In this document: piece by piece, positions 10,990 to 42,310 of the stretch
Position numbering within the stretch: position 1 is the first letter of the stretch
How the letters are laid out: each line of letters begins with the position of its first letter
Assembly (NCBI GenBank): GCA_951406725.2
Contig: OX597831.1
Span: 62,930,001 to 62,994,000 of the forward strand
Length of the DNA stretch: 64,000 bases
Reading direction: 5' to 3'
Source of the DNA: Octopus vulgaris
Taxonomy: Eukaryota
Made by a program: the position numbers and the translations under genes
The notes under the pieces: model-generated
Database searches by the model: none
What the model saw: only the letters and a program-made list of their open reading frames with translations
What the model was told of the DNA's origin: nothing

Positions 10990-11140
10990 CTAATTGACCC
11001 CGGGACTTATTCTTCATATGCCTAGTACTTATTCCATCGGTCCATTTTGGTCGAAGCACTAAGTTACGGTACATAAAGACACCAATACCGGTTGTCAATG
11101 GATAGTGCGGGACAAAGGCAGGCACACACAAATAGACACA
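10990..11140 (-). mobile_element. SINE family A, 3' part
   Basis: GACCCCGGGACTTATTCT...AGTACTTATT...AAGTTACGG...CCGGTTGTCAA matches the family. Confidence 0.75.
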
Positions 11141-11146
11141 CACACA

Positions 11147-11185
<39 letters not shown>

Positions 11186-11209
11186 TTATATATAAATACA
11201 TATATATAT

Positions 11210-11738
11210 TAAAATCTTAGGGTAGCAAGAATATTCTAAGAAAAATATTCATCGAAAATTCTTAGTTACCAGTGGTCTAGCGAGAAAGAAAAAATTAGTC
11301 AATAGACTATATATTATTCAAAGAAGAATACAGTGTACGTTCAAACACAAAAAGAGATACTCGAAGAATAGGATATCGGACTCGCTAGAAAGAGCAGTTA
11401 AAACTCCAAGCCACCAACTGTTGTAATTCCGAAAGTGATTGGAAAATAAAAACTTTTACCTTAATCCTAGACCCTGCAAGGTTTCTGCAGACTTAAATAC
11501 AGGTTGAAATAAAATAATTTCAGCCCATATCTGGCGCTGCTTCTTCTGTAGGTTGCCAGGACTGAACACATTCAAAGAAGAATACAGTGAATGTTCAAAT
11601 ACAAAAGAGATACCCGAAGAACAGGATATCTGATTCACTAGAAAGAGCAGTTAAAACTCCAAGCCACCAATTGTCGTAATTCCGAAAGTGATTGGAAAAT
11701 AAAAATTTTTACCTTAATCCTATAGGATTAAGGTAAAA
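11210..11738 (-). mobile_element. Retrozyme-like / Penelope pLTR-type small element: partial tandem (period ~253 bp) with hammerhead and terminal fold-back
   Basis: Direct repeat ~11317-11469 / ~11571-11722. Hammerhead fold at 11466-11552. 32-bp palindrome at 11707-11738. Homologous to 42008-42310. The 3' end abuts (TA)n. Confidence 0.75.
11466..11552 (-). ncRNA. Type I hammerhead ribozyme, core variant CAGAAGA (probably inactivated)
   Basis: Minus strand: CCTA-CAGAAGA-aGCAG...long hairpin...CTGCa-GAAAC-CTTGCAGG-GTC-TAGG. Stems I, II and III are present; U4 is changed to A. Confidence 0.7.
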
Positions 11739-12439
11739 GAGAAATATAGCCAGGTGTCGAAACTGTAAATGAAACCTCTGTATTACAAGGAAGGTAAATA
11801 TCCAAACTATATCAGCAAATATATTAACTATTTAAAATATTCATTGCTTACACACACAGCAGCTGAAATTGTGATATTTCAAACACGGCATCATTTACAG
11901 CAAACCAATTATACAGCCCGGATAACCTAACCTATATTCTTCGTTACATTTACTCCCCTACTCTCCTATACCCATAACCACACTGCTTCGATGTTCCCAA
12001 ATGCCTGTGCTTGAATTCAAAACTATACATAAATATCACTGTGCATAACATTATATAAATTTATTAAATTTATAAATATTGTAAAATTTATAAAATAATC
12101 CGTATATACGTGCGAACGCTTTAACATAAATGTAATTTATATATGTCGTTTGTGCTTATGAATATAGGCGTACAGGTATATACAGAGCATTCTCTCCGCA
12201 AACTACATAATGCATCTCCATGTATATATGAGTATTTTTATATTAATACACATATAATATAATAAATCTATATTCATGTAAATTCCCATATGTTTAGATA
12301 CAATTTCCCCGCAAGTGTACAGTGTATAAACATATCCACGTAGATAGCAGAAGTTAAAGGAGAAATATTTCTTTGTGCTCCATTCTTAAACTCATCATGG
12401 ATCCTATTTAACCAACTGATTATGAAACCTCTGAGTGGT

Positions 12440-42007: not shown

Positions 42008-42012
<5 letters not shown>

Positions 42013-42310
42013 AGGGTAATAAGAATTATAGAAATTATTATTACCAATGACCTAGCACGAAATAATAGTCAATATACTATATATTACTCCCATAAAAATA
42101 TAGTGTACATTAGAACACATTAAGATGCTTCCAAATAGGAAAGTCTTGAGCTAGAAAGAGCAGTAGAAAACTCAAACCACTAATTATGGATAAATTCCCG
42201 AAAGGATTGAAAATTAAAAACGTTTACCATTTAATTTAGTTCCTAGACCATGGTTTCTAACTCATTCCAGTAAAAATATATTTACTGAGGGTAGTTTTCG
42301 TCAGTAGGGA
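42008..42310 (-). mobile_element. Hammerhead-bearing small element related to 11210-11738
   Basis: Shares TTAGGGTA..., TTACCAaTGaCCTAGC, TAGTCAATA.ACTATATATTA, GCTAGAAAGAGCAGT and CCTAGACC blocks. The 3' end abuts (TA)n. Confidence 0.75.
42242..42308 (-). ncRNA. Type I hammerhead ribozyme with fully canonical core
   Basis: Minus strand: CCTA-CTGACGA-aAACT...CAGTAAA/TTTACTG hairpin...AGTTa-GAAAC-CATG-GTC-TAGG. Confidence 0.85.

Follow-up and report, generated by a model that had tools for sequence, protein, structure and literature searches.

Insertion Ends of a Hammerhead Retrozyme Family in Octopus vulgaris Are in Excess at the Predicted Ribozyme Cleavage Site

Results

Organization of the Insertion

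The window, by which we mean the whole stretch of 64,000 nucleotides analyzed here (Octopus vulgaris, contig OX597831.1, positions 62,930,001 to 62,994,000), contains at 11208–11739 on the minus strand a copy of a non-autonomous hammerhead retrozyme, which belongs to subfamily f1 and is 93–95% identical to the family majority. The GC content around the copy is 0.35. At its 3' end lies the microsatellite target, a (TA)n/(CA)n run at 11131–11207, and no target-site duplication was seen around the window insertion. The initial annotation had ended the element at 11317; the copy extends to 11208, where it borders on a (TA)n/(TG)n run, so that the stretch 11208–11316 of its 3' segment had been overlooked, and other family copies also extend beyond the position equivalent to 11317.

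The insertion consists of three parts, described here in unit positions counted from the predicted cut. The 3' segment (11208–11469, minus strand) covers +1 to +248 and ends in the second of two zones in which reverse transcription of the family starts (+235 to +270). Upstream of it, the predicted cleavage site GUC/UAGG (11469–11470, minus strand) is read through in this copy. The 5' segment (11570–11722, minus strand) covers +1 to +153, opening precisely at the predicted cut, and has its 3' end (11570) in the first start zone (+95 to +165). Between the two segments there is a private junction at 11570–11571 (minus strand), where +153 is joined to -102 with a 2-nt AT microhomology and about 235 nt of the unit are absent; it is this junction that creates the 253-nt spacing. 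The third part is a short inverted arm (11723–11739, plus strand), which covers +1 to +16/17, begins at the cut position, and forms the right half of a palindrome.

The letters bear out the position of the cut as originally proposed, with GTC ending at 11470 of the minus strand and TAGGATTAAGG beginning at 11469. The upstream repeat copy indeed opens with identical letters (TAGG...) at 11722, giving a spacing of 253 nt, and 11707–11738 is a perfect 32-bp palindrome with a loop of 0; the letter at 11739, just beyond the palindrome, also agrees with the family at +17. Elsewhere in the window (42011–42235, minus strand) lies another, much older copy, which is 74% identical and covers about +5 to +239.

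Hammerhead Motif

The hammerhead is of type I (11466–11552, minus strand) and comprises stem I (CCTA/TAGG), the core, a long stem II, GAAA, and stem III. Across the family, the core letters are 0.96–1.0 conserved (67–90 aligned arms), and 97 of the 117 stretches carrying a hammerhead have lost neither core box. Alignment of 37 copies showed 91% of the cells of stems I–III to be paired, with two-sided (compensatory) changes at 5 of 14 stem pairs, including two of stem III; the pair adjoining the cut is A-U in 25 copies and G-C in 8. These changes mostly track the subfamilies f1 and f2 and thus represent few independent events, and stem II lacks its first pair in 32 of the 37 copies. Judging from these aligned letters, the hammerhead is a real conserved fold under selection. 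The CUGA-box of the window copy (11542–11548, minus strand) reads CAGAAGA and has one change relative to the family, an A at 11547 where the family has T (0.99 of 67 arms); this change likely arose after insertion. Stem III (11471–11482, minus strand; 12 nt) is self-complementary in both subfamilies, and the palindrome of f2 differs from that of f1. Hammerheads with a self-complementary stem III are predicted to act as dimers, according to the portion of the literature cited here (PMC4209133).

A search against Rfam gave nothing at the gathering score and only chance hits (E 1.8–8.4). Folding of the 253-nt unit or of the ribozyme stretch alone was not informative (z of -1.6 and -1.0, respectively), and the minimum-energy fold is not the hammerhead. 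Ten letters past the cut, at family positions +7 to +16 (window 11454–11463), the motif AAG/GTAAAA resembles by eye a 5' splice site; by eye, it also recurs downstream of the frame in L257, in the terminal region of an element with a frame of 781 aa.

The Family and Its Unit Length

The family, surveyed in a genome of 2.8 Gb, is a non-coding hammerhead retrozyme of about 489 nt with copies in the hundreds, the window copy being an old member. The majority unit derived from aligned arms is 489 nt long and closes on itself, and some arms exceed one unit in length. Long f1 arms have a median identity of 94% to the majority (190 arms). The older subfamily f2 has a unit of about 482 nt and matches the f1 unit at 417 columns. 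A natural tandem (L092) has consecutive cut sites 488 nt apart, arranged head to tail with one ribozyme per unit; no stop-free frame of 220 codons was found at this locus, which marks it as non-coding, and the frame for a reverse transcriptase (RT) with GIY-YIG is absent from the 489-nt unit, which is too short for one. At the end of the same tandem (L092:3340–3413), a short stretch across the cut site is present three times, perhaps because the RT slipped or jumped there repeatedly. Two near-identical insertion pairs with common flanks (L020/L021 and L151/L152) are either segmental duplications or assembly duplicates.

A DNA search with the window element gave 57 matches from the best 40 of 999 candidates, and, besides the window locus, none of these 57 spans both sides of query position 168. 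The 24-nt junction behind the 253-nt spacing has a single match in the genome at no more than one mismatch, namely the window locus itself. Since the junction is unique and the family unit is 489 nt, the 253 nt are a property of the window copy and not a family monomer; the 253-nt monomer or circle proposed in the initial annotation must be given up as the unit of the family. Assembled contigs of presumed RNA runs carry family sequence, although such contigs cannot show ends, strand, or circles; among the matches listed, no contig bridges the 11570/11571 junction, an absence that proves nothing.

Distribution of 5' Ends Relative to the Cut

Arms were drawn by exact seeds downstream of the cut and thus blind to the upstream sequence: all 73 matches of the seed at +24, 100 listed of 162 at +58, and 100 listed of 219 at +127. 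Upstream extension gave 215 arms, or 214 after one split arm was merged. Six ends were adjusted manually: one was shifted to +1, three were placed at -3 to -6, and two were recognized as internal deletions. The segmental duplicates L151 and L152, which end at +21, were retained, and the top-40 BLAST loci and the loci picked for a +1 start were excluded from the rates unless hit by an unbiased seed.

The 5' ends of copies were not randomly distributed with respect to the GUC site, as the proposed cleavage would lead one to expect. Of 116 arms at risk, 9 ended at +1 (7.8%, against 0.64% per nt overall; P = 8e-8), roughly twelve times the background, which makes +1 the most used of the 368 positions having at least 30 arms at risk. 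The excess also stands out from the adjoining +2 to +24 (1.4% per nt; P = 4e-5) and is similar without the hand corrections (8/111). When one arm per locus was drawn 200 times, the median P was 1.3e-4 and the worst 0.004. Within f1, 9 of 96 arms ended at +1, whereas the 25 other TA starts together gave 13 in 1681 (P = 7.5e-7), and in f2 none of 20 arms started at +1. For four of the nine +1 ends, which adjoin (TA)n, the true start may be +3; with these four left out, the other five still yield P = 0.024 relative to the shoulder and 0.001 relative to all positions.

The sharp excess at +1 is accompanied by a shoulder of ends over +2 to +57. The ending rate per nt at risk was 0.40% over +127 to +59, 0.69% over +58 to +26, and 1.4% over +25 to +2; beyond the cut it was 1.9% at -1 (2/107 arms), 0.86% over -2 to -9, 3.1% at -10/-11, 0.29% over -12 to -30, and 0.38% over -31 to -100. 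The hazard drops across the site, from 74 ends in 7357 nt (+2 to +57) to 28 in 4924 nt (-2 to -57; P = 0.008). Both +1 and -1 were passed by 105 of the 116 arms, so about nine in ten read through the cut, and cut templates are a minority. Some of the longest arms (L072, L039, L016, L146) do not quite reach the next cut, ending within the upstream unit at about +10 to +51, which amounts to 4 ends in 344 nt at risk.

Two further positions attract ends. Of 128 arms, 7 end at +5 (window 11465), where stem I has its 3' foot; four of the seven are from f2, in which the register is less sure. These +5 ends would fit an RT that pauses as it enters the ribozyme. At -10/-11 (window 11479–11480), inside the palindromic stem III, a post hoc count found 6 ends in 193 nt at risk, belonging to L052, L081, L082, L087, L138, and L200. 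Both pile-ups suggest that the fold itself may stop or redirect copying.

Matched control seeds were chosen to begin at TAG, and the letters upstream were read by eye; these samples overlap the first set and are not independent replicates. The cut site gave 11 strict starts in 143 matches (15 counting arms preceded by a chance C), the CTAG at +83 gave 0 in 100 listed of 306, and the CTAG at +190 gave 3 in 100 listed of 148, plus one internal deletion. The cut site differed from both CTAG controls pooled (P = 0.005, or 0.015 counting the deletion). TA/CTAG microhomology was considered as the sole cause of the +1 excess and was rejected, since the TA and CTAG controls are lower, with the caveat that the +190 control by itself shows no difference from the cut site (P = 0.16).

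Inverted Arms and Junction Palindromes

Inverted family sequence was joined upstream to 134 of 214 arms, compared with 2 of 214 for shuffled flanks, and inversion is thus the rule at any 5' end. In 100 of 132 head-to-head pairs, one arm ends at +95 to +165 and the other at +235 to +270, and 244 of 308 f1 3' ends touch a microsatellite. The two arms of a pair share 34% of their non-majority letters, against 11.5% when shuffled (63 pairs), which indicates that paired arms come from identical or closely related RNA; the sharing may also stem from later gene conversion.

A U-turn of the RT on the first cDNA cannot yield pairs that are not nested, and 74 of the 132 pairs are of this kind; a simple U-turn was therefore rejected as the mechanism of the family. 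Near-perfect hairpin junctions occur in 4 of 214 arms, two of them at the cut. In the window copy both arms extend all the way to +1 and meet without overlap or loop, and we infer that two run-off cDNAs joined end to end fit this loop-less palindrome better than a U-turn of the RT. The earlier suggestion that the RT had turned around at the end of its template is not needed, and a palindrome with zero loop would be hard to form by snap-back.

GIY-YIG Elements and a Second Hammerhead Family

Open frames of 781 aa occur in GIY-YIG elements of this genome; L257, L262, and others represent a young family with many such frames, ending at (TA)n. A pattern search found no hammerhead in the 1.5 kb past the 781-aa frame. 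Comparison with 30 GIY-YIG loci (of 150 scored of 6136 candidates) revealed no terminal repeat shared with the retrozyme family, the best resemblance among these 30 loci being an 18-nt match (E = 0.006), in addition to AT-rich hits. A second hammerhead family (L259; L281–L310) has 1169 exact seed matches, often in inverted pairs. It represents the terminal repeat of a GIY-YIG element, and some of its copies lie beside GIY-YIG-like frames. By eye, no start at its predicted cut was seen among 100 listed of the 1169 matches.

Discussion

According to our analysis, the 5' segment of the window copy probably starts at the cut because a Penelope-type RT ran off a self-cleaved linear RNA. A circle has no 5' end at +1, and the start therefore argues for linear cleaved RNA. 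The proposal that a self-cleaved transcript served as template can thus be retained as likely for the 5' segment, +1 being the most used end position of the family (9/116), while the 253-nt circle that accompanied it cannot. To call the locus direct genomic evidence of cleavage in vivo was an overstatement: one copy proves nothing, and the evidence lies in the family-wide excess. As statistical and indirect evidence, this excess of ends makes it likely that some templates were self-cleaved linear RNAs.

The course of events that we propose is as follows. Transcripts of the unit would be multimers whose self-cleavage is incomplete. A Penelope RT–GIY-YIG protein would nick (TA)n DNA and, with both target strands serving as primers, begin cDNA synthesis in the two start zones inside the unit. 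Most cDNAs would stop early or cross a site that is uncut or has been re-ligated, roughly one in ten of the cDNAs reaching the site would run off the cut 5' end, and trimming during joining would leave the shoulder of ends at +2 to +57. Uncut multimers, re-ligated circles, and jumps would account equally well for the read-through arms. In the window copy, the first cDNA would have been copied from +248 through the uncut site to -102 and continued from +153 to the cut end at +1, by a template jump at the start zone or through a later deletion. End-to-end joining with a second, short cDNA, which likewise terminated at +1, would then have produced the loop-less palindrome.

An alternative, which we regard as rather unlikely, explains the +1 excess by RT pausing at the folded core or by a joining bias at TA/CTAG, without any cleavage, the start of the window copy being one such stop. 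Cleavage appeared dispensable in vitro in the part of the anole study considered here (PMC11167929), as this alternative would allow. The structure-linked peaks nearby at +5 (7/128) and -10/-11 (6 in 193 nt) would also be expected under it, all 11 ends at +1/-1 adjoin (TA)n or inverted family sequence, and several of them show TA, TAG, or CTAG microhomology. The 3 starts in 100 listed at the +190 CTAG point in the same direction, as do the short palindromes of the second hammerhead family, which attract fold-backs. However, other TA starts were used only 13 times in 1681 and the +83 CTAG not once in 100 listed, and the TA/TA junction of the window copy has no overlap and was therefore not set by microhomology. 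An RT that pauses at a helix would be expected to stop at the foot, here +5; the +1 position sits four letters inside the helix, which would speak against pausing as the cause.

It is very improbable that a 253-nt monomer or circle was copied and that the RT then made a U-turn on its own cDNA. The spacing and the palindrome are exact, two of the four near-perfect hairpin junctions among 214 arms are at the cut, and the long arm contains the whole of the 17-nt arm, which for the window copy would allow a U-turn with later repair; however, the junction is unique in the genome, the family unit is 488–489 nt, a circle lacks a 5' end, and the two +1 to +153 segments of the copy have no changes in common (8 vs. 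3). A loop-less hairpin presumably could not prime itself, and 74 of the 132 family inversions cannot be U-turns. Self-cleaved linear RNA as the template of the 5' segment leaves room for two origins of the 253-nt spacing, the template jump and a 235-bp microhomology deletion after insertion, and we give the deletion slightly less than an even chance. Its parent would be an ordinary insert of 1.5 units (+1 to +489, then +1 to +248). Such inserts exist (L072, 731 nt; L100, 687 nt), other internal deletions occur, and there is AT microhomology at the junction, but the breakpoint at +153 falls in a main start zone, as re-initiation would.

More broadly, we put forward, as a proposition on which we are evenly divided, that insertion ends could preserve a fossil record of how active the hammerhead was in the germline. 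A Penelope RT would copy both cut and uncut RNAs, and the +1 share (about 8–10% in f1, none seen in f2 or in Penelope's own repeat) would measure the in vivo cutting of each family; cut linear RNAs, and not only circles, would be substrates of transposition, and loop-less +1 palindromes would mark two run-off cDNAs joined. A genome-wide excess of +1 ends may serve as a cheap general test of in vivo cleavage in the RNAs that were actually retrotransposed. It implies that linear cut RNA, and not only circles, gets copied.

The element, the inversion, and the palindrome are of known kinds. In LINE-1 twin priming, two primers from the two target strands lead to a 5' inversion, and the arms are adjacent parts of one RNA. 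The octopus pairs are alike in the two-primer inversion; the arms lie next to each other (within 25 nt) in only 21 of the 132 pairs and overlap in most.

By structure, and as read from the sequence, the window element is a metazoan non-LTR retrozyme. In the published accounts, so far as they are considered here, these retrozymes likewise have a non-coding tandem unit with one type I hammerhead and low GC, occur as monomers to multimers in any circular permutation, and have been proposed to depend on Penelope (PMC7229834; bioRxiv 10.64898/2026.07.22.740005). The octopus unit differs from those described there in its 489 nt and long stem II, and for the published retrozymes expression and circles have been shown (PMC7229834; bioRxiv 10.64898/2026.07.22.740005). 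Insertion ends have been mapped to the cut in the octopus family; no such mapping is described in the portions of the retrozyme papers cited (PMC7229834; bioRxiv 10.64898/2026.07.22.740005). No paper mapping copy ends of retrozymes to the cut site was found in the open-access literature, supplements aside.

According to the relevant parts of the Penelope papers, EN+ Penelope-like elements are alike in 5' truncation, partial tandems, and an inverted 5'-truncated copy (PMC8557442, PMC3846280), as well as in junction palindromes, microsatellite targets, and a hammerhead with palindromic helix III (PMC8557442, PMC3846280, PMC4209133). They differ in that the octopus unit lacks an RT/GIY-YIG frame and has no terminal repeat in common with the 30 GIY-YIG loci. 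In the same parts, these papers explain junction palindromes by self-priming and term the role of the hammerhead in Penelope-type transposition unclear (PMC8557442, PMC3846280, PMC4209133).

The Penelope protein of the anole Poseidon element PAc, as described in the sections of the study drawn on here (PMC11167929), cuts and extends both target strands in vitro, has AT-rich targets, and begins reverse transcription at two internal sites. Insertion by PAc took place without need for hammerhead cleavage, which seemed dispensable in that in vitro system, and no RNA reads ended at the cut (PMC11167929). In the octopus family, unlike PAc so far as that account goes, the start zones lie about 100 nt apart with one used per arm, and genomic 5' ends pile up at the cut.
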